A DNA stretch of 64,000 bases from Pelagomonas calceolata (Eukaryota), in the NCBI GenBank assembly GCA_918797485.1, contig CAKKNE010000003.1, forward strand, positions 4,340,001-4,404,000, written 5' to 3'. The notes under the pieces were generated by a model. That model was not told the origin of the DNA. It ran no database searches and saw only the letters and a program-made list of their open reading frames with translations. Position numbers and translations under genes: made by a program. Positions 3,760-44,974 of the stretch are shown in pieces. Each line of letters starts with the position of its first letter. Position 1 is the first letter of the stretch.

Positions 3760-6700
3760 ATGCCTCGCACCTCGTTCTCGCTCGACGAGGACAACGACGT
3801 AGTGAAGGCCGTGCTGCGTTGTGACACGAAGGACCACCACTGGACCGACGAGAAGTTAGCAGTGAAGGTATCGCTGATGCTGGGACGGTCGGTCACGAAG
3901 GATGAAGTGAACAGAGCGATGGGTGGCCCGCGGGAGCGCGAGGTGCGAGTGGACCAGCGAGGCCGATACGCGCGGAAGGTGTACTCGAAGGGCTGTGCCT
4001 ACTTAATAACATGTGGTAAGACGCGTTTGAAGGGTCAGAACGACTACAGGATCCCGCGCTTCCCGCAAGTCGAGGACCTCTGGCCGTCGGCTCCGCGCAG
4101 CAGAACGCCGCCGCCGCCCAAGTCCGAGAAGCGCAAAAAGGCGACGCCGCCGCGGCGCAGCGTCACGCAGGCGACGCCCGATCGAAGCAAGAGCGCCCTG
4201 CGCGAGGAGCAGAAGGCCGGCGACCAGAACGCCGCGCCCTCGCCGGCGACGCCCGCGACGCCCGCGACGCCCGCGCCCGTGGACGCGACGCCCCACGGCG
4301 ACGCGGCGCAACTACTACTGAGGCGGCTCGCGCCGCCCCCGCCGCCGACGCTAGAACGGCCGCCGCAGCTGGACGTGGAGATGGACGACGCGCCGACGCG
4401 GCCCGCGACGCCGGCGCCGCCCTTCTCCGCGCGCGTCTCGGACATGGTCGACGCCGCGGTTAATTGGGGCGTGCCAGACGAGGACCTGGGGTTCTATTTC
4501 GCTAGGAAACTCGCCGAAGCCGAGGACAAACTAGCCAAAGTGGAGGCCGACGCCGCCGCGTCCGCCGCCGCGGACGTGGCCGCGGCCGAGCGTCGCGAGA
4601 AGCGCACGGAGGACGACGAAAAACGGTTCCACGCGCGCCTCGCCGACGCTGCGGCGTTGTACCGGAAGAAGGCCGCGTTCAAGCTCAAAGACGCCTTCGA
4701 AGGGGTGCTAGACGCACGCGGTAGATTGAAAGAAATCACGCTGGAAGACCTGTGGAAACCTCTGGTGGACCCCTACGGTGACAAGAGGGCCGGGTCGGAG
4801 TTCTACGCGGAGACGCTGTTGCTCCTCGTGCAGACGCCGGACGCGCAGCGCAAAACGAAGAACGCCAGGGACGCGTACGCGAGAGAGGAGGGTTATCGGA
4901 CGGACTACGAGAAGGCCGCGCCGGGCATGGGCGGCTACCGGGACAAGGACGGCGGCCCCGTGTATAAGCGGCCGAAGAAACGGGGCGCCGATTTAGCTGC
5001 GTGGATCGACGCCCGCGACTCCAAGGCCAAGTGCCGCGCGCTCGCGATGGCGGCGATCAACGCGACGGCGACCACCGGCGGCCTGCGCGGCACGATCATG
5101 GGCGTGTTGGTGTCGCTGGCGGTGTCGTGGCACGGCAACGTCACGCAGGCCGGACAGGAGACCATGTCGGGCCTCGCCTTCTCCTCGTCGCGGGCAGTAG
5201 TCCAAAAGTACGTGGGCGTGATCGCGAAGCGGTACGAAGAAACGTACTTGCGGGCGCTCTACGCCGACGCCGTGAAGCTGCGCGCCGTCAGCGTGAAGGT
5301 CCAGCAGGACAACTTCGCTTTTCTACAGTGGGCGGCCCACAAACGGCAGGGCGAGGCCTTCACGAATTGCGCGAGCACGATATCTGCGTTGGCTTATTTG
5401 ATTCCGTCTGATCAGCGGCCGGGTCATAATCCGCTGACGGGCGCCAGGCGCGCGGCGGCGATGCCTCCGAAGTTCGATGCGGCGCTGGTGGCGCGCTTTT
5501 ACGAGGAGCACAAGGCGGCGCTCACGGCCGATGCTCGCGGGCACATCGACGTCGACGCGCTCGCCGACAAGTGGGCGCCGCGCGGGCTCTTCCCCCGCGA
5601 GCCGGGGCCGTGCGCGCGGCTCGGGGACTTCGCCGTCCTCCCGTCGCAAGTCGCCAAGTCCAGCAGCCTCGCGGACTTTAGAAGCAAAGTGGTGCCGTTG
5701 ATGACAAGAGTTATGAACGCGTGCAAGTTCGGGAACGCGGCGGTGCCCCACGTTGTTCAAGACGTCTTCCTCACCGTCGACCCGGAGCCCTACCTGCTCG
5801 CGGACAAGGCGGCGAAGCTGGACTACGAGGCCGTCCGGCACGTGTTCGTGACGCTGACGCCGTTCCACTTGCAGAAGCACGGCCTCGAGTTCCTCTTTAC
5901 CGATCCGGAGGACTTCCTCATTTTTGGCGAGTTCCTGGCCAATTTCATGGACTACCGCAAGGATCACATAGCAAAGTTCCTGAACAAGGGCTCGAGCGCC
6001 GTGCCGCGCGCGGCGCGGGCCGAGGCGACGCAAGCAGCTGGCGACGACTCCGACGACGAGCCGGACGAGTTCGAGCAGGCCGTCGAGGCCTTGGATGATT
6101 TAGATGTTCGAGAGGAGCGCGAGGACGGCGGGCCGGGTCTCGCGCGGCGCGCGCTGGACACGATGCTCGGCTTCGTGTCGCGCCTCCTGCCGGGCGCCGC
6201 CGCGCGGCCTGCTGCTGAAGTCGCCCTGCCCGAGGAGTCTGGCGCGGACGTCCGCGAGGAGCTCGCCGCCGACCTCGCCGCGGCGGACGACGAGGGTTTC
6301 GACGACGCCGTAGCAGCGGCGGACGCGCGACCGGCGGCGACCGAGGCGCCCGCGCCCGCCGCGGAGGCGCCGGCGCCGGCCGCGCCCGCCCGCTCGCCGT
6401 TGGGCGGGCGGGCGGGCGCTGAGAGAGCCGGAAAAAAGATCAACTTCGGGCGCCTCCGCCATTTCAAGCAGACCCTGCACGCCGCTTTCCGCAGCATCAG
6501 AGCGGACCTGGTCAAAAAGGTGCGAGAGATGGCGGGCTCGAACGCCACGACCGACGAGGAAGCCATCGACTGGGCCTGCCGCACGTCGGAGCGATTTTTG
6601 TACTTGTGGAACTTGTTCGACAACGAATTGGAAATGTGGATGCAGCCCTTTTTGGACTGGGACCACGGCGACGCGCGGACGGTGTACGCGAACCTTCCGG

Positions 6701-7524
6701 TTATGATCCTGCACATGATTTATTACACATACCAGCCGCGGTGGCGCAACAACCGGCTCGCGTCGTGGCTGCTCTCGCACTTGAACGCGACGCTCTACCG
6801 GATCAAGGAGCGGCCCGATCTCGTGCGAGTCGACGCGCGCACGTGCAAGCACGGCAACGACGTCTTCATCGAGCACCTGAACTCGGTCTTGTCGCGGTCT
6901 ATTCCTTCGAACACGAAGATCACGCCGGAGACGATCAAGACCGCGTCGTGCTCGGTGAGCGCGCGGTGGCGCCTCGCCGACGTGATGAAGCGCATGCTCC
7001 GCCGGAAGCGCAAGCCGGCCACGCCCGAACTCCTCCAGGACGAGCGACGCATCCGCAGCCCGTCCTTCAAGGACACGCTCGACGCGGGCAAGCGCTTCAT
7101 CTGGGAGAAGTTCGAAGACGAGCTGAAGAAGATCGCCGACGGCTGCCCGACGCCGTGCGCCGCCGCCAAGCGCAACAAGGCCGCCATCGGGTTGCAGTGG
7201 GTGCGGCCCTTCGCGGAGCACTACGACGTGCGCCTCGGCCGCGCGAAGGAGCCCACGACGAAGACGTCCGAGGAGGTGCGCGCCGAGGAGCTGTCCGTCG
7301 AGGCGGCCGTCGCCAAGTACAAGAAGGAGTACACGCTCAAGAAGGTGATGGGCTTGAGCGCGAGCGCGGCCGACGCGGCGCTGAAAGCGATGAAGGTCCC
7401 GGGGCGCGGCTCCAAAGTGAAGGAGGGGAAGCGCAAGGGCAAGAACCTCAACCGGGACGACAAGCGCGCGCTGCTCGCGGAGTTCCTGGGGCTCGCGCCG
7501 GCGCCGGCGCCGGCACCGGCTTAG
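3760..7524 (+). CDS. 1254-aa DUF6589-like (RNase H-fold) putative transposase
   Basis: Uninterrupted ORF with ordered motifs VQQDNF ... TVDPEP ... LTPFHLQKH ... NDVFIEHLN, like DUF6589-type DDE proteins; basic helical C-terminus; followed by a CACTA-type end at 7672-7683. Confidence 0.6.
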   Translation: MPRTSFSLDEDNDVVKAVLRCDTKDHHWTDEKLAVKVSLMLGRSVTKDEVNRAMGGPREREVRVDQRGRYARKVYSKGCAYLITCGKTRLKGQNDYRIPRFPQVEDLWPSAPRSRTPPPPKSEKRKKATPPRRSVTQATPDRSKSALREEQKAGDQNAAPSPATPATPATPAPVDATPHGDAAQLLLRRLAPPPPPTLERPPQLDVEMDDAPTRPATPAPPFSARVSDMVDAAVNWGVPDEDLGFYFARKLAEAEDKLAKVEADAAASAAADVAAAERREKRTEDDEKRFHARLADAAALYRKKAAFKLKDAFEGVLDARGRLKEITLEDLWKPLVDPYGDKRAGSEFYAETLLLLVQTPDAQRKTKNARDAYAREEGYRTDYEKAAPGMGGYRDKDGGPVYKRPKKRGADLAAWIDARDSKAKCRALAMAAINATATTGGLRGTIMGVLVSLAVSWHGNVTQAGQETMSGLAFSSSRAVVQKYVGVIAKRYEETYLRALYADAVKLRAVSVKVQQDNFAFLQWAAHKRQGEAFTNCASTISALAYLIPSDQRPGHNPLTGARRAAAMPPKFDAALVARFYEEHKAALTADARGHIDVDALADKWAPRGLFPREPGPCARLGDFAVLPSQVAKSSSLADFRSKVVPLMTRVMNACKFGNAAVPHVVQDVFLTVDPEPYLLADKAAKLDYEAVRHVFVTLTPFHLQKHGLEFLFTDPEDFLIFGEFLANFMDYRKDHIAKFLNKGSSAVPRAARAEATQAAGDDSDDEPDEFEQAVEALDDLDVREEREDGGPGLARRALDTMLGFVSRLLPGAAARPAAEVALPEESGADVREELAADLAAADDEGFDDAVAAADARPAATEAPAPAAEAPAPAAPARSPLGGRAGAERAGKKINFGRLRHFKQTLHAAFRSIRADLVKKVREMAGSNATTDEEAIDWACRTSERFLYLWNLFDNELEMWMQPFLDWDHGDARTVYANLPVMILHMIYYTYQPRWRNNRLASWLLSHLNATLYRIKERPDLVRVDARTCKHGNDVFIEHLNSVLSRSIPSNTKITPETIKTASCSVSARWRLADVMKRMLRRKRKPATPELLQDERRIRSPSFKDTLDAGKRFIWEKFEDELKKIADGCPTPCAAAKRNKAAIGLQWVRPFAEHYDVRLGRAKEPTTKTSEEVRAEELSVEAAVAKYKKEYTLKKVMGLSASAADAALKAMKVPGRGSKVKEGKRKGKNLNRDDKRALLAEFLGLAPAPAPAPA

Positions 7525-7798
7525 GGCAGCCGGTGGGGCAGCCGCGTAACAATTTGTTGGTACGAGCGCCTCGCGATAGGCCGTGAGGGGTCCGCGGCGG
7601 CCTATCGGGCCCGCAGCGGGCCGCAAAGGCGCTTTTTCAGCGCCGTGCGCCGCCGCCGAACCACTGCAACTTCGGCCCTAGTGTCTAGTAATCTAGACAC
7701 TACGGCCGACTAGTGGGATTTGACAAAGTTGACTTTTTGTTTGGTTGACTTTATTAGATGTAGAGACTGGTCGTTTGCTGGTATCAGTTAACTGGACG

Positions 7799-9430
7799 AT
7801 GGCCGCAAATACGCTGCCCCCGGGCAGGCTGAAGTACCTGGAGGGCCTCGCGCCGGACCAGGCCACCTTCCAGAAGTACGTCGAGGATGAGGCGCGCTCG
7901 CGCGGCTGGGTAAAGCCCACCGAGCTGCTGCCCCGCGCCGCGCGGTCGCGCCGCGCGCCGCCGCCGTCCCCGGACCCCGCCCCCAAGAAACAGGGGCTGA
8001 AGAGGCGCCGCGAGACGTGGGAAAAGCTGCCCTCGTCGTCCCAGAAGCGCTCGCGCGGCGACGGCGCGGCGCGGCCGCGGGTCCTTCAGACCATAACAAA
8101 CCGCGCCCCGCAGTCCCTGGACAGCGTCGTCGTCGCCTGCGACGACGAGCGCGTCGAGGGCACCGCCATTGCCGTCGTCGGCGACACTGTGCAGGTCCAG
8201 CCGTTCGCGCAGGGCTCGGAACCGCTCGTCGTGAAGAAGGAGGAGACCGCCGTCACGGTGGCGCGCGCTCCCGAGGCGCTCGAGGACGTCCTCGCCGCGC
8301 GACGGACGCCGTTCTTCGCCCCGAAGGTCGGACCCATCTTCTCGGGCGACTCGCTGTTGCTCAAGGACGGCAGCATGGTCGTCTTCCTGCAGCCCTCGTC
8401 GTCCTCAAGGATCGAGGTCTTGGAGCTCTACAAGATCGACGCGTTGCCCAAACACATCAACAGGTCGACTGCGTCCACCTGCGATGTCGTCCTCTCGTCG
8501 ACTTCTAGAGAGGTCTCGGTGACCTCCGTCGTGGGGCCTGTGTGGGTCGTGTCGCAGGACAAGGCCAGAAGTGGTGCCTACGACGGCCTCGCGCGAGTCT
8601 ACACCCTCGACCAGTGGTTTGATGGTACGTCGCCGGCGCTGCGACCGCTTCCAGAGCGCTGCGTCGCGTCGCTGATCGACGACAGGCCGTCGACGATGAG
8701 CGGCTTGTGGGACTTGTTAAACGTGCGCGTCGCCGTTGCTGATGCCGTCGGCGAGCTCCTCCGCGGGAAAAAGAAGAGCGGTACCGTTACGACGTGTGTT
8801 TCGAAGTACTGGGCTGGGCCCCGCCGGCGTCGGGCATGTGGATCGAGGTTCACGGCGAAGCGCGTCGTGGCGCGCGGGCGGCCAGGCGGCGCCGACGTGA
8901 CGCGCCTCCAGTTCTACCGTTTCGAGCGGTTCTCGCTTAGCGGCGATGACGTGGTGCGCCTGGAGAGCGAGTTCCGGATCTTGGCGCGGCGACGCGGTCT
9001 ACGAGTACCCCTAAAAGGCGGCTTCAAGGAGACGAGGGTGCCGACGACGCTGGACGAGTTCAACAAGCTCGTGCGGGTGACGTGCACTTACAACGTCGAC
9101 ACCGGCGGTGAAGCTCAACGCCCGCTTCGAGGTCAAGTCGCCCGCCGAGGCCGGTGCCACGAACGTGGACGAATCTGACGGCGCCGTCGCCGTTGCCACC
9201 GCCGGAGACGGCCGTCGAGCCCGTCGCGCCCGTCGAAGACACGCGTCGCGACGGTCGTCGCGGAGTTGCAGATGAAACAGTTCGAGCTCGACGGCGTCGT
9301 TTACACTATCACGGCGGCGACGGCGGCGTCGTGCGAGTTTAGGGAGGGCGCCCGGTCGCCGGCGCGGGCGTGCCGACGCTCACGCGTCCCAACGCCCGAA
9401 GTCCGCGCCGTCGCAGCCTACGAAGGTAGT
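7799..9430 (+). pseudogene. BAH-domain-containing protein (transposon partner gene), frameshifted in its 3' part
   Basis: About 8335-8625 encodes FSGDSLLL...IEVLELYKIDALP...DVVLSSTSREVSVTSVVGPVWVV...VYTLDQWFD, the BAH strand pattern; main frame stops at 9178 but coding-like frames continue to about 9430. Confidence 0.55.
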
Positions 9431-9433
9431 AAG

Positions 9434-12400
9434 TCACAATTTACCAGCCCATGCGCGCTTCTGCTTCCAGCCGATGACCTTGAGCTCGCCGGGCTTGACC
9501 AGGCCTGTGAGCCACATCATCCGCCGCTGCATCCACTTGCCCAGCGCGGCGACGCGCGTCGCCCGCGTCGCCTCGTGGCCGCAGTGGCCGCCGCGCTGCG
9601 TCCGCGTGAGGAAGAAGCGCTTGATCAAGTGGTTCACGCTCTCGAAGCCCTGGTTCGAGTAGCGGTACAAGTTCCGGTACTTTCGCAAATGCCGATGTGG
9701 CCCTTGCCGATCATGTGGAAGTAGTTCGCAGGGCCTTCGCCGTGAAAGCCGTCAGTAGCCGATGGTAGGTCTCCTGGGCGAGGTCGTCGGCTTTGGCAAT
9801 CTCGACGTCCGTGAGATCTTCTCGTTTTCGATATAGCACCATCAATTCCTCGTAGCCGCGGACGAGGTCGAGGACGACCCGCCGCTTGGCGTCGTCCGGG
9901 AAGCACGCGCCGATGAGCCGTGCCGACGTTAGCCATCTTCCGGGCGCGGCCGCAATTCCGGATCTTCTCGACGGAATCTTCGTCCTTGGAGAGCGGCGCC
10001 GTCCACTTGCCCTCGCGGCCGTTCGGGCAGCCGAAGCCTTCGTTCTAATCGCCCTCCAGCGGCCGCAGCTTCGCCAGGGCCACGCTCTTCTCGTAGATCA
10101 CAAATAAATTGTTGAGGATGAGCCGCAACAGCTTCTCGCGCGTCCGGTTTTCTAAATGCAAGGACGACGGGACCATATGCTCGACCAGGGAGATGAGCGC
10201 ATCAGAATTTGGCGTGGCGTGTTCTAATTGCGCTTGAAGTTCGTAATATTGGTCAACCAATTTCAGGCGCTGCGTCAGCTTTCGACGCGCGAACCGAGGT
10301 TGCCCGTCACCGCCAGGCCGAAATCAACAAGACAATCGTTCACGACCAGCGAAAATTGCGCGTTTTTGTGCTGGGGTCGCAGTTCGACAGTCGAACTTTG
10401 CGTAAAACCCGTTTTGGTTGGGGTTTTCCAATTCCAAGCAATGCTGACCGCAATAAGCAGCGAAGCGCGCGTGCAAGTGGGCCGAGGTGCCGCCCGCATC
10501 GAGCCCAGCCTCCGCGGCGAGCTCGCGCAGCTGCGCCGCACTTAAAGTCTTGGCCTCGCGCATGTAGCGGTAGGCTGGGGCAGCTCCCTCTGAGCTCCGT
10601 GAGCGCAGCGGCAGCCGTAGCGCGCCACTCGTCTACGGCAGCCGGCGTCGACATCTCCGCGTGGTAGCACACTAACCGACCCGCTGCTCTGCAGACGTCG
10701 CAAAGGTCGTCAACTACCTTGGGCGTCGTCATCTGCCTGTTGGTCTGCGGCGCAACAATAACACGGCCGCGCGTTCTCCGGCGTCCCAGTCGCGAAGCCC
10801 TTCTTCGACACCGTCTGGAGGTTGGCCATGTCGCCCGAGCAGACGTAATCAACGTGAACGGCGCGGCCCTCTGCCTCTGACTGGTAGACACCATCGGTTT
10901 GCGCCGTCGCCGCTGTACTGAAGTGATCCGTCCGTCGTCTAAAGCTTCGTACAGGGCATGGCTCTCGTGGCCAACGGCTAACGTAGTAATATGAACCCGA
11001 TCAGGCGACTGGAAGTCGGTGATAGGCTTGCCAGTGATCGGGTCGACGCGCGGCTGTCGTTGACGTGGATCCCTTGCATCGTAAAGTCGTCGCTTTTCGT
11101 GATGTTGCTGCCGTCTTGCGTGCCTCTGATCCTCCGCGGATCCGCGGGACTGCGTCCAGTCTCGCGGCCCGCGCTGGCTTTCCGATGACGTCGAGGACCG
11201 CGCCCGTCGCAATGCCGACCGCCTCGTAAGTGCCGTCGCCCGCGGACGTTTCCGTAACCGAAACCTTGTGGCCATCAGCAACTCTCTCGACCAGCTTGGC
11301 TGTTTCCTGGAGCGCGAACTTCGTGGGGAATAACAGCATCACGTGCTTGCCCAACGTCTCCCCGAGCGCAACGAGAGCCGCCCGCTCTCTGGCCCGCATG
11401 GCCTCGCTCGCAGCGTAGTTCCCCGTCATCTCCACGTCCATGGTCTTCGGAGAGAAAATCTCCTGGAGGCGCCGGTACTCCGCGCACGCAAAGTGAGCTC
11501 GCACGAGGCCAATCTCCCCCCGCCCGCGAGAGTGTTGACACCACGCGTAGTCGGCTAGGAGACGCAGACACTTCTGTTGCTTTCTTTTGAGCGTACCACC
11601 ACAAATTCTACTGAGAAAGTCGCCGACGGCGTGGACCACGGGCCACAACGACTCGCCTTCGAAGTCCGAATCCGGCGGCGGCTCCTCCGGTAAATACGCA
11701 ACACGAGAACCCAGCCAGGCGCCTCGAAGCCGTCGAAGGCCATAAAGCTCGAGGTTGAGCTGGCTTTGTTTCTTTTTCAAATCGGCGACTTCAGTTCTCT
11801 GCGCGTCGAGTTGCCGCTGCAACTCGCGCGTGTTTGTCCGGAACCCCTCCTCCAATCGCCGCCGCTCCTCGTCTAGCCGCGCCGCCGCGCGTCGCTCACA
11901 GTCTATTTTCCATAGTTCTTTCTCTTGTGAAAATTTGGCTCTAAGGCGATCAACGTCGCGCCGTCGTGCCGCTCTCTCCGCGGAGAGCGCGTTCGCCTCG
12001 CGGTCCAGAGAGAAGCATAAGTTGCCGAGTCGGTGGCGCTCCTCGCGCCACTGCGTCCTGTCTGTCGCGTAGCTCGCGTGGGCGCGACGGCCGCGGCGCG
12101 CGCGGCTTCCGCGGTCGCACGCCGCGAGCGCGTCTTCGGCGCGCTGCTCTAGGGCCATTAAATCTCGTCGTGTCACGGGCCGTGGTACTGGCGCGACTTC
12201 GTCGAGGTCGACCACGCCTTCGTCCGGCACGAGCAGCTCAGCATCATCAACCGGATCCACCGCGCGTGACCTTCTCGCCGGGCGTCGTGTACATCCTAGG
12301 CCGCGCGGACGTCGGGCGCTTCTCGCCGGACCGCGCCGTCGTCTTCGACGGCTTGCGCGGCGCTCGGGGCGGCTGCTTCCTCTTGCACTGGAACTTCTCC

Positions 12401-12720
12401 TCTGGTCGCGGGAACGGCGGCTCGACGCCATCGGGGTACTCCTCGAGCGCGCGCGCGCGGTTCTGCACGGCTGGCAAGAAGTAGATGCACCGCGGCTCCT
12501 TATCAATTTCGTACGACTTCCGCCAGTACCGACCCTCGGCATCAAAGGTCACCCTTGTCCTCGCGGTGGGACCGAGCGCCGCGTTGAGCGCGGCGCGCGT
12601 CGCCACGCCGTCCATCTCCATGAGGAGCTCGTCGTCGCTGAGGAAGACGTCCCCCTCCGGCATTGGCAGGGCGTCGAAGATGTGCTGATCGTCCGCCGCG
12701 GGCTTCCACACCCGCGGCAT
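9434..12720 (-). pseudogene. RAG1/Transib-like DDE transposase, multiple frameshifts
   Basis: Reassembled across frames: TQDGSNIT (D1, ~11113), CSGDMANLQ (D2, ~10830), PCYCC, SAP-like LSAAQLRELAAEAGLDAGGTSAHLHARF, VPSSLHLENR, NYFHMIGKGH, YSNQGFESVNHLIKRFF (E, 9641-9643). Confidence 0.8.
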
Positions 12721-13143
12721 CGTGGCAGCACCAACGTTCTCGGGCTGTGAACAAGTTATTAAAACTTGATTAGAGTATGCTGCGCAGCAGCTGCGTGTGG
12801 GCTGCCTCCCCCAATCAAGTTTTAATGCGATGCAGCTGGACCGAGATCGCAGCGCTTTTAGCAGCGCCGCTGGGCGCTCAGCTACCCCCTGGTTTTCCTA
12901 CAAGTTACTGCAATACATAATGTAACTAGGGGGGCTTGGTATCCTACCAGTAGGCCGTAGTGATGTACTCGTCGCGGCCGGCGCGAGCAAATCGCGCCCC
13001 AAATCGCTGCCAAGACAGCCTGTCGCACGCGTGGTGCATCACCTGACACCCAAGCGCAGAAACGTGGCAACCGCACGCGGTTTCACAGCCCCCGCGCGCG
13101 CGCACGCGCTGAGCTCCTGCTTTGGCTTCCAAGCTGCGTCGCG

Positions 13144-14220
13144 ATGGGCCGCCAGCCTTTATTATTGCGCCGCCATAGAGCGAGCCGTAGACTGGATCTC
13201 GCCAAGCGCGACGGAAACGAGGACGACGTCCTAGGCCGCGAGACGCACGCCGCCATCGAGCGGGCGCGCGATGATGGTGATTTACTACGCCAGAGCACGG
13301 CCGTCTCGAACATGGGCTCCTTAATGGGTGCCCTGGCGGCGGAGCGCGACGACATCGCCGCGGGCGTGCCGACGGGCGGCACGCTCGACGCCGAGGCCTA
13401 CGTGTTGGTCGCGCAGCGGCAGGGCGCGTGCGCGATCGCGGTGCAGGACGCGACGGTCGCCGTCGACGAGGCGCGGGCGGCGTACGAGCAGCACATCCTC
13501 GCGAACCCGACGCGGTACGCCCAAAAATATGGGCCGCCCAAGATGATCACCGGCGACGAGCGCCTGACACTGCGCGCCCAGGGCGCCGCCAGGCAGGCGA
13601 GGTACAAGGAGCAGGGCCCCGTCCGCGTCGAGGACACGAACGAGCACATGGAGCTCCTCGGCAAGATGCAGGCCAAGCACCTCGCCGACGGCCGAAAGAG
13701 GGAGAGCCTCGCGCGACAGGGCATTGATAGCGCCACGCTCCTGCCCGATGTCGTGCCCGTGCATCGAGTAGACCTCGGTCAGTTGTTTAGGGTGGACTAC
13801 AGCGTGGAGGCTCCGCCGGACGAGGAACGCACGCTGTGGCCGACGCAGGAGGAAGCCCACGACCAAGCGACGCGGTGGCGCGAAATCTTGGGTCGGCCGC
13901 GACACGCGGTGCGGGCGGCTAAAGCGGCGCGCGGCGGTGTGCTGAATGTCCAAGTCCATAGTAACGACGACGACCTGTTCTGTGTTCAATATAAAAACAA
14001 GTACAGGGGCAAGTCACGCTACGTGCGCGAGCCGGGCACTGGCGGGAGCTATTATTATGATTGGGACGCCGCGTTACAGTTGAAGGCGGACTACGAGAAG
14101 TCGAACAAAGACGCCTCGTGGTTCGTGTCCGCAGCGGAAGTGAGGGCGGTGGGAAAGGCGAACCAAGAGGCGGGCCGCGCGAAGGGTCGCGCGTCTCAGA
14201 AGAGGAAGAGGGAGACTTAG
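13144..14220 (+). CDS. Hypothetical basic protein (358 aa)
   Basis: Long ORF with coding-like composition and a KRKR C-terminus; no family recognised; start uncertain. Confidence 0.5.
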   Translation: MGRQPLLLRRHRASRRLDLAKRDGNEDDVLGRETHAAIERARDDGDLLRQSTAVSNMGSLMGALAAERDDIAAGVPTGGTLDAEAYVLVAQRQGACAIAVQDATVAVDEARAAYEQHILANPTRYAQKYGPPKMITGDERLTLRAQGAARQARYKEQGPVRVEDTNEHMELLGKMQAKHLADGRKRESLARQGIDSATLLPDVVPVHRVDLGQLFRVDYSVEAPPDEERTLWPTQEEAHDQATRWREILGRPRHAVRAAKAARGGVLNVQVHSNDDDLFCVQYKNKYRGKSRYVREPGTGGSYYYDWDAALQLKADYEKSNKDASWFVSAAEVRAVGKANQEAGRAKGRASQKRKRET

Positions 14221-14867
14221 GAGACGCCGCGGCGGCGACGGAGGGCGCGCGCGCGCGCCCGGCTCCCGAGTAATACTGTAGTTGAATAGAGCCTCTCGCC
14301 GCGACCGATCGCCAGCGCGTTACAAGACGAGGCGGTAGGATTCCCCGCGAGGACGGTTGCGAGGACGCCGAGAGAATAACGTATGGGTTTTTTGACATCC
14401 GACTGCGTCGTCTGTAAAAAACCCAATACGTGAGCCAAAAAACCCACCACACACCACCACGAGGCGAACAAACTTTCATCTACGCCAGCTGCCTCCGCCT
14501 GTCGGCTCCGGCCGCCGACGCAGACGAAAGTTTGGCCTGCGGCCGCGGCAACCGCGCGTAATTTAAAATTTTCCAGATTCTCGGATCCTCGGATCATCTC
14601 CCCCTTGTTTCCCAAACTGCCATGAGCCAGAAGAAAGTTTGGCCTGCGGCCGCGGCCCCAGCTAAAAATTTTTATGAAATTTATCTTAAAGGGGGGACAT
14701 CAGCGCGCGAAATTTTAACGGAATCTACGCCACGATTCAACGGGCAAGGCACGCTGGGAAAATGCTTTTTTAGAAAAAGCGTCACCAAAAATTGTAATTC
14801 GGGTTTCTAGTGGCTAGGGCACACGACGTGTAAAATTTAATATTTTTAAAAATGATGAATTGTGAGC

Positions 14868-15884
14868 TCACAGGTTGACCCGCACCTCGGCCACCGTGAC
14901 GCCACCGTACTTCGTGTTGATCCTCAGATCGCCGGCGCCCGTGTCGATGCGTCGCAACTTGAGAGGCCCGGGCTTCCCATCACTACGCCACTTCTTTCCC
15001 GAGCGCAGCATGAGCTGCATGTGCGTGGAACTACGAGTGTTGAGCATATAATCCACATCCTTCTCGAGCGGCGGGTCGAAGATCAGCTCCATGGTCTTCG
15101 CTCGGAAGCCCGTGCCGTTGATGTTGAAGCGCGTCGTACCGGTCATGTAAATAACTTTTTCGCCTCCGTGCATGACGGTCGGCGTCGGGATCACCCTCGC
15201 AATCACGACAGGGGTTTCGAGCTGGTTCATGCTTCCTTTCCGGTCGTCTATGAGTGAGGTTAGGTACAAATAGGTACCCTCATCAGAAGCGAGGGGCCAG
15301 GACTTGCCACTTACAAGGTTGATCGACAGCGCCGTATCCGACAGGACCTGGACCTTGTAGTCCGTCTTGGGCATCGCCGGCACGAACTGGAGGTTCAGGT
15401 GTTCGCCCGTGCCCGCGGCGCCGAAGCCTTTTCCTTTCAATCTTAGCTTTTGGGTGACGGTACTGTAGATAGGGTTCCGCCGGGCCTCAACGTGCACATA
15501 GGGGCCTGCGTAAACAGTGTAAACAGCGTGCTGTTGCGTGGCCAGTCCTTGGGACGCAACCTTCCTCGTTGAGAGGATTTCGAGCGCCGGCGCGTCCGTT
15601 CCTGGCGGGGAAATAGCGTGCTGTTGCGTGGCCAGTCCTTGGGACGCAACCTTCCTCGTTGAGAGGATTTCGAGCGCCGGCGCGTCCGTTCCTGGCGGGG
15701 AAATAGCGTGCTGTTGCGCGGCCAGTCCTTGCACCGCAGCCAACGTTCTTAGTTGAACCGCAGCGTTTAGGACTAAGAACACGATCAACACTACGAGCAC
15801 ACTGAAGCGAATTTCCATCAGGTGGCGCGCTTGCTGCGTGTGCTGCGCTTGTCCTTGCCCCAAACTTACTAGCACTAAGGACAT
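14868..15884 (-). CDS. Membrane-anchored/secreted beta-rich repeat protein (IPT/TIG-like) carried inside the TIR element
   Basis: Hydrophobic N-terminal segment, 30-aa tandem repeat, two related modules (IYSTVTQKLRLKGKGF / IYMTGTTRFNINGTGF ... GKSW / GKKW). Confidence 0.6.
   Translation of the reverse strand: MSLVLVSLGQGQAQHTQQARHLMEIRFSVLVVLIVFLVLNAAVQLRTLAAVQGLAAQQHAISPPGTDAPALEILSTRKVASQGLATQQHAISPPGTDAPALEILSTRKVASQGLATQQHAVYTVYAGPYVHVEARRNPIYSTVTQKLRLKGKGFGAAGTGEHLNLQFVPAMPKTDYKVQVLSDTALSINLVSGKSWPLASDEGTYLYLTSLIDDRKGSMNQLETPVVIARVIPTPTVMHGGEKVIYMTGTTRFNINGTGFRAKTMELIFDPPLEKDVDYMLNTRSSTHMQLMLRSGKKWRSDGKPGPLKLRRIDTGAGDLRINTKYGGVTVAEVRVNL
15526..15731. repeat. 90-bp coding tandem repeat, about 2.3 copies
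   Basis: QGLATQQHAISPPGTDAPALEILSTRKVAS repeated almost exactly at DNA level. Confidence 0.9.
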
Positions 15885-16364
15885 ACTAGCCCCCCTATAA
15901 ACTTTACAGGAGGCTGTCTTTTAAGGCTGGTAATCAAGCCTGCCACCGCTGCGCAACGTAGCGCAGGCTCGCAAAGGCCTTCGTACCACTTTCCAAAGAC
16001 ACACGCGCGCGCGCGGTGAAATTTGACCCGAGGCCAAACTTTCGTCTGCGTCGGCGGCCGGAGCCGACAGGCGGAGGCAGCTGGCGTAGATGAAAGTTTG
16101 TTCGCCTCGTGGTGGTGTGTGGTGGGTTTTTTGGCTCACGTATTGGGTTTTTTTACAGACGACGCAGTCGGATGTCAAAAAACCCATACGTTATTCTCTC
16201 CGAGGACGAGCTAGCGTATGTCGCACACTAGGCTCACGGCCGGCTTTGGCAGTAGCTAGTTATACGTAATCCGAGCCAGCTCGCGTCCGCCGCCCCTTGC
16301 AGCGCGCGACCCGATCCAAGTATTGCTCTCGCCGCGCCACCCACCGCACCGACTAGCACACAGA

Positions 16365-26284: not shown

Positions 26285-26647
26285 GGCCGTGCCCGAGAAG
26301 CCGCCGCGACTCCGCCGCGGTGGCGACGCGACCGCGCCGCGGCGGGCGGAACGCGGACCGCCGAAGCGACAGCGGCGGCGGTACGGCCGCGTCGTCGACG
26401 CGGCGATTGCGCGCGCAGCAACGACTCCCGCCGCGCGCTCGCGCTGAGCGCTTCGACGCTGCCCCACGTTTGAGGGGCAGCCCGTCGCAGCGATGGCTGC
26501 GCACTCTCTAAAGTATGGTCTTTTTGGAGCGGCGGCAGCGGTATGGCTTAATGGTCTTCACTAACTAGTCTTGCGTTATAGAGGCCCGTACCGTTGGTCG
26601 GGGATTCTCTAGCTTGACATCGTCAAACCTACGGTACCTACGGTACC

Positions 26648-33685: not shown

Positions 33686-33770
33686 CATGGAGTAGGTTGA
33701 CGTCAGTGATTGAAGACCAAGCTCACTCATCATAGACTCGGAGGAGAGGACTATCAAGATCCAGGGGGAG

Positions 33771-33972
33771 TGCGAAGAATATACCCCTAGTACCCGAGAT
33801 ACATATCCTTTCCCTAATCCCTATCAACACGTCAACACAGTAAAAATGAGTGAACTTATTATTACATCTAGTGCTTATATTATACCCGGGGATTCACCTA
33901 TGACCTCAGTCGCCAATACCGTTGCCATGACCACCTTAGCTGTACACACATTGCAGTCCCTTATTTTCTACA
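33771..33972 (+). repeat. LTR family C, 3' LTR
   Basis: 202 bp TGCGAAG...TTCTACA preceded by PPT AGGGGGAG. Confidence 0.85.
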
Positions 33973-34052
33973 AAGCCACGCAGCAAATCATGTTAATAAC
34001 GTCGATGACGGGGTTTCTGACCAGTTCCGCCATGGGCTGTGGGCCCATAACC

Positions 34053-34254
34053 TGTAGAAAATAAGGGGCTGCAATGTGTGTACAGCAAAGGAGGTCATGG
34101 CAACGGTATTGGCGACTGAGGTCATAGGTGAATCCCCGTTTATAATATAAGCACTAGATGTAATAATAAGTTCACTCATTTTTACTGTGTTGACGTGTTG
34201 ATAGGGATTAGGGAAAGGATATGTATCTCGGGTACTAGGGGTATATTCTTCGCA
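34053..34254 (-). repeat. LTR family C, 5' LTR in the opposite orientation
   Basis: Inverted copy of 33771-33972, followed on the minus strand by PBS GGTTATGGGCCCAC. Confidence 0.85.
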
Positions 34255-34398
34255 CAATCGCTGTACTGACCGCACAGGCTGGTACCGTACCGTAGGTAGG
34301 TACCTACGGTACGGCTTTCACGAGGCAGGCATTTATCTGCCTCTAGTCTATGATCTGCTGCTCGTCGTTCCAGGCTCACGGGCCCGACACACGGCGCC

Positions 34399-37000: not shown

Positions 37001-37008
37001 ACGGTACT

Positions 37009-37824
37009 TAGCAAGAGTATGTCGCAGCGTTATGTAAGTAGCAGGGTCCTAGCTAACCAGCTTAGAGCTGATAGGCCTGACTGCGAGAGTGTTTTATAGT
37101 GAACTGTTGTTACACCGTAGTGCTTTTGACACTCGATGTATAGACTCAAATATTAGAGAGTGGGAGATACATATCTAGGGTAGGAAGGGCTAGTAGGTTT
37201 CTCTCTCTACTCCCCCTGGGCGCGAGCGTCCACTAGATGCGCTTCCACTAGAGGATGTATCAACTCAGTCTATTCACAGGCATAGTCTGGGTTTTCACCT
37301 CTTGATTCTTCGAAGGCTCGATTTAATTCACGCACTTCATCCTCAAATTTTCTGGTGAGCCTTTCCTCTAACGCTTCACGGTCTGCTTCCAGCCGCTTGA
37401 TTTGTTCTTCGTGTTTCTGTTGGAGCTGAGCTTGTGATCATGATTGTTCGATCGCGTTTTGAACGAGCCGTTTAAGTTCTTCTTGTTCCATCGCTGGATA
37501 TTCACTTTCTTCGCTCTGTTGGGGTGTTTTCTCTTTAGATTTCTTTTTGGGTGTTTTTCCTTGTTTAGGCATTCACTGTAAAACACTCTACGTCAATAGG
37601 CAGAACCCTGTGGGCCCATAACCTAGCAAGAGTATGTCGCAGCGTTATGTAAGTAGCAGGGTCCTAGCTAACCAGCTTAGAGCTGATAGGCCTGACTGCG
37701 AGAGTGTTTTATAGTGAACTGTTGTTACACCGTAGTGCTTTTGACACTCGATGTATAGACTCAAATATTAGAGAGTGGGAGATACATATCTAGGGTAGGA
37801 AGGGCTAGTAGGTTTCTCTCTCTA
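37009..37824 (-). mobile_element. Complete copia-type TRIM, family A
   Basis: Two apparently identical 201-bp LTRs (37009-37209, 37624-37824), PBS GGTTATGGGCCCAC, PPT AGGGGGAG, 5-bp TSD GTACT, 414-bp non-coding interior. Confidence 0.95.
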
Positions 37825-44293: not shown

Positions 44294-44905
44294 TAGCAAG
44301 AGTATGTCGCAGCGTTATGTAAGTAGCAGGGTCCTAGCTGCAAAGCACCGTACCGTTTAGGACGGGAGCACAGGGTATGTGAGGTTTGCATCTTATAATT
44401 GTCTCCCCAATAGTACATAATTTCCTTAATGTGATTTAGTATAAATAACATAGTGAATTTAGGCTGGCGTGGGCGATTCGTTGTGTGTAGGGTAAGTAAG
44501 TAGGTAAGTAAGGAGAATAGGGGTATTCACCGTACTATAGTTTGCACTCCCCCTGTAGAAGGTCACAACATTGGATTGTTCAAGTTGTGGCTCCTACATC
44601 ATAAAGTGTTGGGGTGTTTTCTCTTTAGATTTCTTTTTGGGTGTTTTTCCTTGTTTAGGCATTCACTGTAAAACACTCTACGTCAATAGGCAGAACCCTG
44701 TGGGCCCATAACCTAGCAAGAGTATGTCGCAGCGTTATGTAAGTAGCAGGGTCCTAGCTAACCAGCCTAGGGCTGATAGGCCTGACTGCGAGAGTGTTTT
44801 ATAGTGAACTGTTGTTACACCGTAGTGCTTTTGACACTCGATGTATAGACTCAAATATTAGAGAGTGGGAGATACATATCTAGGGCTAGTAGGTTTCTCT
44901 CTCTA
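44294..44905 (-). mobile_element. Second family-A TRIM, disrupted by an LTR-B insertion and deletion
   Basis: TSD CCCCA on both sides; 5' LTR and PBS retained; 3' LTR cut at 44338. Confidence 0.85.
44339..44546 (-). repeat. LTR family B (208 bp)
   Basis: TGCAAA...TTTGCA ends with adjacent PPT (CTCCCCCT on +). Confidence 0.7.
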
Positions 44906-44974
44906 CCCCATTTGACGCACCTACGGTACACACCGTGGGTTTGGGAGCGCGCGACTCATCCGCGCCTGGGAACC

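Follow-up and report, generated by a model that had tools for sequence, protein, structure and literature searches.

The 64,000-nucleotide stretch of Pelagomonas calceolata contig CAKKNE010000003.1 analysed here (assembly GCA_918797485.1, positions 4,340,001 to 4,404,000, forward strand; hereafter the window) carries at positions 7698-12962 a two-gene transposon, a multi-copy, transcribed and likely active member of a large family. Its transposase is strongly predicted from structural modelling to have the RAG1/Transib fold, and the convergent second gene encodes a partner protein that is predicted, at moderate strength, to carry a BAH-type fold. We give slightly better than even chances to the reading that this partner is an accessory protein which would tether the transposase to nucleosomes without reading methyl-lysine.

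The preliminary description of this DNA had proposed 22-bp terminal inverted repeats (TIRs) that begin with CAC. These are present: CACTACGGCCGACTAGTGGGAT at 7698-7719 has its inverted counterpart at 12941-12962, and no further copies with up to 5 mismatches occur within the 64-kb window. Such a pair is expected by chance about 0.6 times over an 11-kb region and about 0.01 times for two 1-kb end regions, and by sequence alone it gives modest support for the ends. The ends are settled because a read-derived contig of DNA runs X1 and X6 covers exactly this interval, stopping at 7698 and at 12962. In X1 the element contig has a depth of 208.4, as against 19.2 (left) and 16.1 (right) for the flank contigs; in X6 it has 43.7 as against 3.8-5.9. 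This excess therefore suggests several near-identical copies, about 11-13 from X1 and about 7-11 from X6, contig depth being a rough guide and not a count. At the window locus no target-site duplication was found (left flank ...ATCTAGA, right flank ATGTACT...); the window copy may be rearranged, which would bear on the missing duplication.

Both reading frames are interrupted in the window, and the element had been taken for a single decayed copy. Between the read-derived contig and the window there are 33 substitutions and 73 gaps, and among the differences listed in the window-versus-reads comparison (40/52 substitution rows and 12/52 indel rows) the window letters are contradicted by the DNA contig and, in agreement with it, by most RNA reads. 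No contig with the window's alleles is found among the X1 rows listed, although both flanks there show 0 differences to the window. As a copy present at depth 16 and really decayed would be expected to yield contigs of its own, assembly error is favoured. The P. calceolata gene models of the element (P0001, P0005, P0007, P0008, P0018 and P0136) are each broken at different places, in agreement with this explanation, and a single transcript record carries both open reading frames (ORFs) intact (P0006 and P0016). The frameshifts are thus likely to be assembly errors in an unpolished repeat rather than decay; the accessible part of PMC9481584 describes the published assembly as Nanopore-based and polished. 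That the window holds a decayed copy with a captured host gene beside the transposase gene, to which the many differences and the missing duplication might point, is hardly credible and was rejected because the X1 rows listed contain no single-copy contig with these alleles, and on account of the family data given below.

The partner gene starts with the ATG at 7799 and stops at 9427-9429; the transposase gene runs towards it from the ATG at 12720 to its stop at 9443-9441, which leaves 11 nt between the two stops and agrees with the tail-to-tail arrangement near 9430 described before. In the window the partner loses its frame past about 8810 and once more farther downstream, with the missing letters present in nearly all reads. 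The features of the element are collected in Table 1.

Table 1. Features of the two-gene transposon in the window (aa, amino acids).
Feature	Position	Strand	Remarks
Whole element	7698..12962	.	window copy 5,265 nt; read-derived contig 5,316 nt
TIR, partner side	7698..7719	+	starts CACTACGGCC
TIR, transposase side	12941..12962	-	19/22 match to the opposite end
Partner gene, single exon	7799..9429	+	547 aa intact (P0016); from tblastn of P0016 and reads
Small SH3/Tudor/KOW-type barrel, predicted, residues 97-154	8087..8260	+	precedes the part common to the relatives in alignment A5
BAH-like domain, predicted, residues 167-275	8297..8623	+	methyl-lysine cage not conserved
Middle alpha/beta domain, conserved, about residues 297-448	8690..9150	+	G-x(5)-G-x-R-x(3)-P-type motif in relatives
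Transposase gene, single exon, RAG1/Transib-fold DDE type (predicted)	9441..12720	-	1,106 aa intact (P0006); window copy with many frameshifts
First catalytic Asp, D543 (TQDGS), predicted	11113..11115	-	invariant, 107/107
Second catalytic Asp, D638 (SGDMA), predicted	10830..10832	-	invariant, 107/107
Catalytic Glu, E1040 (SNQGFES), predicted	9641..9643	-	kept in 99% of alignment A4
SAP-like helix pair, weak	10474..10551	-	PF02037, E 0.0047 (fragment) and 0.052 (P0006), under the curated cut-off
Abundant antisense RNA within the transposase gene	10448..11380	+	depth to 1667 and 1314; 5' ends 10448-10456
Second antisense RNA, over transposase start and 5' leader	12117..12912	+	depth to 714 and 525; ends 12117 and 12912
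Imperfect inverted repeat, transposase 5' leader	12758..12826	-	sense RNA start near 12846 (6 molecules)

A metagenome scan gave 412 stretches encoding relatives, of which 80 loci (G+C content 0.38-0.50) were returned and analysed. In 71 of the 80 a homologous convergent partner is present, the two stops lying no more than 180 nt apart; whether the pair recurs elsewhere was one of the checks proposed in the preliminary description. Over their whole length the partners of the relatives match the family of the window partner (probability 98.6, E 6.8e-16, 355 columns). Eight of the loci without a partner have less than 600 nt of downstream DNA; the ninth, L004, has 812 nt (L004:3640-4452) and shows no partner match, and this sole locus of its kind may be truncated or partner-less. 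Trees were built from 51 pairs with both ORFs of at least 340 aa, of which 44, below 90% identity, were kept. The transposase and partner trees have 32 of 41 splits in common, and 19 of 20 among the well-supported ones, with the partners diverging faster (median identity 18%, versus 33% for the transposases). Such congruence shows long joint inheritance, which is no proof of binding. A passenger or captured host gene as the partner was rejected on the basis of the 71 loci and the congruent trees.

Element ends were located in 14 of 16 candidate loci, L022 and L025 having been dropped as internal chance matches. The ends read C(A/C)(A/C/T)TA and bound elements of 4.6-5.2 kb (L023 starts CACTACGGGCC); by the motif used 9 of the 14 start with CA and 5 with CC, L076 being ambiguous. 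The subgroup L014, L015, L020, L038, L039 and L076 has CCTTA ends instead of CAC or CAA, which is unusual for RAG1-type enzymes. L014 and L015 represent one element in different flanks, as do L038 and L039, and in L014 and L023 a second short block is shared. On the target-site duplication, whose length was another of the earlier checks, a duplication of at least 3 nt was seen in none of the 13 relatives with both flanks, these flanks being short and possibly joining different copies. No near-identical copy of the window element was returned by the metagenome scan. Relatives were found in none of 29 candidate stretches from IMG/VR (a TIR scan there also gave 0), in none of 27 from GTDB genomes, and not in BFVD at E<=0.001.

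The RAG1/Transib core earlier assigned to the transposase is supported at the level of fold, a RAG1-like catalytic core with D-D-E being found by structural model and fold match. At the sequence level the match failed: neither the RAG1 and Transib nor the Transposase_21, Plavaka and DUF6589 Pfam models matched P0006 or 43 family transposases, and PDB sequence searches with the transposase protein and profile gave no RAG1/Transib match. Structurally aligned, the transposase shares 12-15% identity with RAG1. All motifs quoted previously occur in the six-frame translation, but two of them are distorted by window errors, the intact P0006 reading PCVLHLENR and TNYFHMIGSGH instead of NYFHMIGKGH. Alongside D-D-E the zinc ligands are conserved across the family: C661-x2-C664, between the second D and E, is 99-100% conserved, and the paired His before the catalytic E has a spacing of 5 in 104 of 107 sequences and of 4 in one, and was not found in two. 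There is an additional conserved C-x2-C...C-x-H site, and the N-terminus is a coiled-coil without a RING pattern. The SAP-like helix pair is followed by a stretch of low model confidence (pLDDT) at residues 335-374. In the Atlas the relative P0101 falls near RAG1 clusters, and by features the transposase groups with RAG1 and not with EnSpm, though the family has EnSpm transposases among its structural neighbours (template-modelling (TM) score 0.57-0.59). To P0101, RAG1 and unnamed clusters of Cnidaria, Mucoromycota and Rotifera are equally close.

For the partner, alignment A5 was limited to long intact ORFs without near-duplicates, which left 48 of the 71 loci, and A6 comprised 42 of these plus the window partner. 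Fold and profile matches agree on a BAH fold, which two different methods run on different sequences both ranked first; the best matches are the histone-binding BAH proteins ORC1b, EBS, SHL, AIPP3 and BAHCC1. The matched residues agree with the stretch 8335-8625 in which a BAH domain had been suspected. The structural model is of low confidence and the Z of the BAH match middling, and Pfam PF01426 (BAH) matched 0/48 and 0/8 partner family members, so the BAH partner stands as a predicted fold and not as a Pfam hit. Its description as a chromatin reader that guides the element is not supported so far: the SHL cage positions Y41, W63 and Y65 are aromatic in 4, 14 and 5 of 43 members in one remote alignment, and the window partner has Glu at the Trp63 position.

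Foldseek gave no match of the partner model at E<=0.001, and the middle and C-terminal domains have no credible PDB match. A PDB sequence search with the partner alone found nothing, and the best Atlas value of 0.79 is noise. A LAGLIDADG-like partner was considered on account of faint Foldseek rows (E 0.023-0.11, probability 0.06-0.14) and not adopted, these rows being at noise level and the middle-domain profile having matched nothing. No kelch or propeller protein is among the 50 fold-match rows listed, which, coming from a low-confidence model, do not exclude one. About 110 BAH residues and a helix-rich middle domain would leave no room for six blades, and we therefore lean strongly against a kelch-propeller RAG2L. 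The distant partner homologues P0142 (residues 20-70) and P0146 (residues 1-50) have an added N-terminal module (NPK..SKS..RYE.YK.A) that is absent in the window partner.

Expression was assessed in one sample, represented by two raw poly(A) runs of which about 6% each was read, with depths summed over all copies and the RNA strand assigned via plus-strand flanking genes. The partner mRNA peaks at depths of 1753 and 1432, and its 3' end (9444/9446) overlaps the transposase stop; sense RNA of the transposase peaks at 95 and 54. In the window copy the longest ATG frame of the antisense RNA at 10448-11380 is 65 aa, and that of the RNA at 12117-12912 is 67 aa. The stronger antisense RNA starts in an AT-richer stretch (10380-10460) that encodes the poorly modelled transposase insertion (residues 335-374), beside the SAP-like motif.

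In RAG and HzTransib a dimer captures both ends, nicks and hairpins the flanks, and transfers the strands. By analogy, a transposase dimer would bind both CAC-starting ends of the present element, D543, D638 and E1040 would nick and hairpin the flanks, and the element ends would then be joined to target DNA, making cut-and-paste at these ends the likely mode of movement. The BAH domain of ORC1b contacts unmodified H3. The partner may similarly bind the transposase as an accessory subunit and contact nucleosomes, or another protein, through its cage-less BAH surface, and the two antisense RNAs may hold transposase output low.

The main rival, which we regard as unlikely, is that the partner is a free-standing regulator of the type of TnpA in plant CACTA or VANC in Vandal elements, which binds its own DNA or chromatin, blocks silencing and controls transposase expression outside the cutting complex. 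In EnSpm/CACTA TnpA is in excess over TnpD. Several observations weigh against an accessory subunit and for such a regulator, namely a large excess of partner over transposase mRNA, strong antisense transcription across the transposase gene, the conserved Gly/Arg-rich motif of the middle domain, the faint LAGLIDADG rows, the CACTA-reading termini and the structural nearness of EnSpm transposases. The RNA figures come, however, from a small part of two runs of one sample with all copies summed, the LAGLIDADG rows are noise, and the transposase features group with RAG1. Vandal anti-silencing is named in the accessible part of PMC12730594.

It is improbable that, in direct analogy to the PHD finger of RAG2, the partner recognises methylated histones and directs insertion to chromatin so marked, which was the version of the preliminary description. 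The top matches to histone-binding BAH proteins and the additional Tudor/SH3-type barrel of the window partner would suit this version, but the cage positions are mostly not aromatic, and small SH3-type barrels match many non-readers (KOW, UBE2O, myosin) equally well. Very improbable is a purely structural cofactor, or a barrel merely resembling BAH, with no role at chromatin. The low-confidence model, the middling Z and the missing Pfam match tell for it and against nucleosome tethering, as does the tight co-divergence with the transposase expected of a binding partner; yet physical linkage by itself also yields co-divergence, and both methods placed BAH first.

The convergent layout is common to the element, the 71 loci and ProtoRAG, in which RAG1L and RAG2L are convergent (PMC9435367). 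ProtoRAG, other RAGL elements and vertebrate RAG1-RAG2 have a kelch/PHD partner, in contrast to the BAH and alpha/beta domains assigned here; the additional C-x2-C...C-x-H site, the coiled-coil N-terminus and the low identity separate the transposase from ProtoRAG and RAG1, and H-x5-H replaces the RAG-type H(3-4)H. AanRAGL of Aureococcus anophagefferens has bipartite ends CACACCCAAACCT and 5-nt duplications, and its RAG2L lies upstream in tandem orientation; the supplement of that study contains no Pelagomonas or diatom names (PMC9435367). AanRAGL resembles the present element in its pelagophyte host class, in being a single-exon two-gene element of RAG1 type and in its recent activity. It differs, in a comparison of ends and layout and not of aligned proteins, by its ends and tandem RAG2L from the CACTACGGCC ends and convergent non-RAG2 partner found here, where the TIRs are near-symmetric over 22 nt and the 5-nt duplication of RAGL and Transib was not seen. 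Transib (HzTransib; subgroups I and II) is a one-gene element with CAC-starting TIRs, whereas here a co-inherited second gene is kept throughout the family. The element is outside RAGL and Transib as defined, though by analogy RAG/Transib-like in its catalysis.

With the CMCT clade (EnSpm/CACTA, Chapaev, Mirage, Plavaka, ESTA and Lanisha), defined in the accessible part of PMC12730594 by C(2)C, H(3-4)H, CA..TG and 2-5-nt duplications, the family has in common C(2)C and a paired His between D2 and E, and CA..TG in most members. It differs by H-x5-H (same site, other spacing), CC starts in some relatives, a lack of observed 2-5-nt duplications and a BAH domain on a separate convergent gene. The Transposase_21-type TnpD and 3-bp duplication of EnSpm/CACTA were not found, although the window termini read CACTA. 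EnSpm has a second, abundant protein, TnpA, and fungal Plavaka transposases often bear a C-terminal BAH/BAM domain; if the latter holds, the link between BAH and a CMCT enzyme is already known as a fusion, not as a separate convergent gene. Kolobok travels with a second protein, KolX. In Harbinger the transposase depends on or travels with a second, Myb/SANT protein (PMC12730594, accessible part). Both are likewise two-gene DDE elements, but with unrelated transposase folds and partners. BAH and diatoms are not mentioned in the accessible main text of PMC12730594, nor BAH in that of PMC10629977, and no element of such layout appears in the accessible parts of PMC3985635, bioRxiv 2021.09.26.461848 and PMC8245031. 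The two-gene layout is undescribed in this literature as far as accessible, Repbase and subscription papers lying outside the search.

The window is repeat-rich. To the left of the element lies an intact 1,254-aa ORF (3760-7524, plus strand) without a Pfam match and without a match to the transposase family profile (probability 0.3%), whose acidic and His motifs give us the impression of another, presumably DDE, transposase. The element is separated by 14 nt from a TIR-like CACTAGGGCC, which lies on the minus strand and ends at 7683; no left end to match it was found. To the right an open frame of 418 codons (12964-14220, plus strand) is weakly transcribed and has no Pfam match. At 14370-16200 inverted arms of 170 nt (99%) flank an ORF of 350 aa on the minus strand that has 90-nt tandem repeats, with CGAGGACG near both outer ends; this is likely a non-autonomous TIR element with a gene piece. 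Further repeats are a fold-back element of 486 nt, 87% self-complementary (33770-34255), dispersed 180-300-nt repeats of 94-99% identity (2715-2895, 37003-37213, 37517-37824, 44607-44909), and pairs at 26640/36214/58390 and 24633/62811.

It is a standing question how RAG1 acquired RAG2 and what makes RAG1-type enzymes depend on a partner, for which the same catalytic fold and tail-to-tail layout with an unrelated partner offer a natural comparison: does the partner dock as RAG2 does, and did chromatin tethering arise twice? A wider reading, possible but on balance doubtful, is that of a widespread undescribed microalgal RAG1-fold lineage with the BAH protein as obligate second subunit since the origin of the family, which would be a second independent design of RAG1-type enzyme plus convergent chromatin partner, active in a cultured pelagophyte, throttled by antisense RNA and possibly making no target-site duplication. 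Given the size of the family (one metagenome scan yielded 412 matching stretches) and its invisibility to Pfam, many unlabelled copies are likely in algal genomes. Being compact (5.3 kb, two single-exon genes), apparently intact and recently multiplied, the element should be reconstitutable and is a potential insertion tool for algae.

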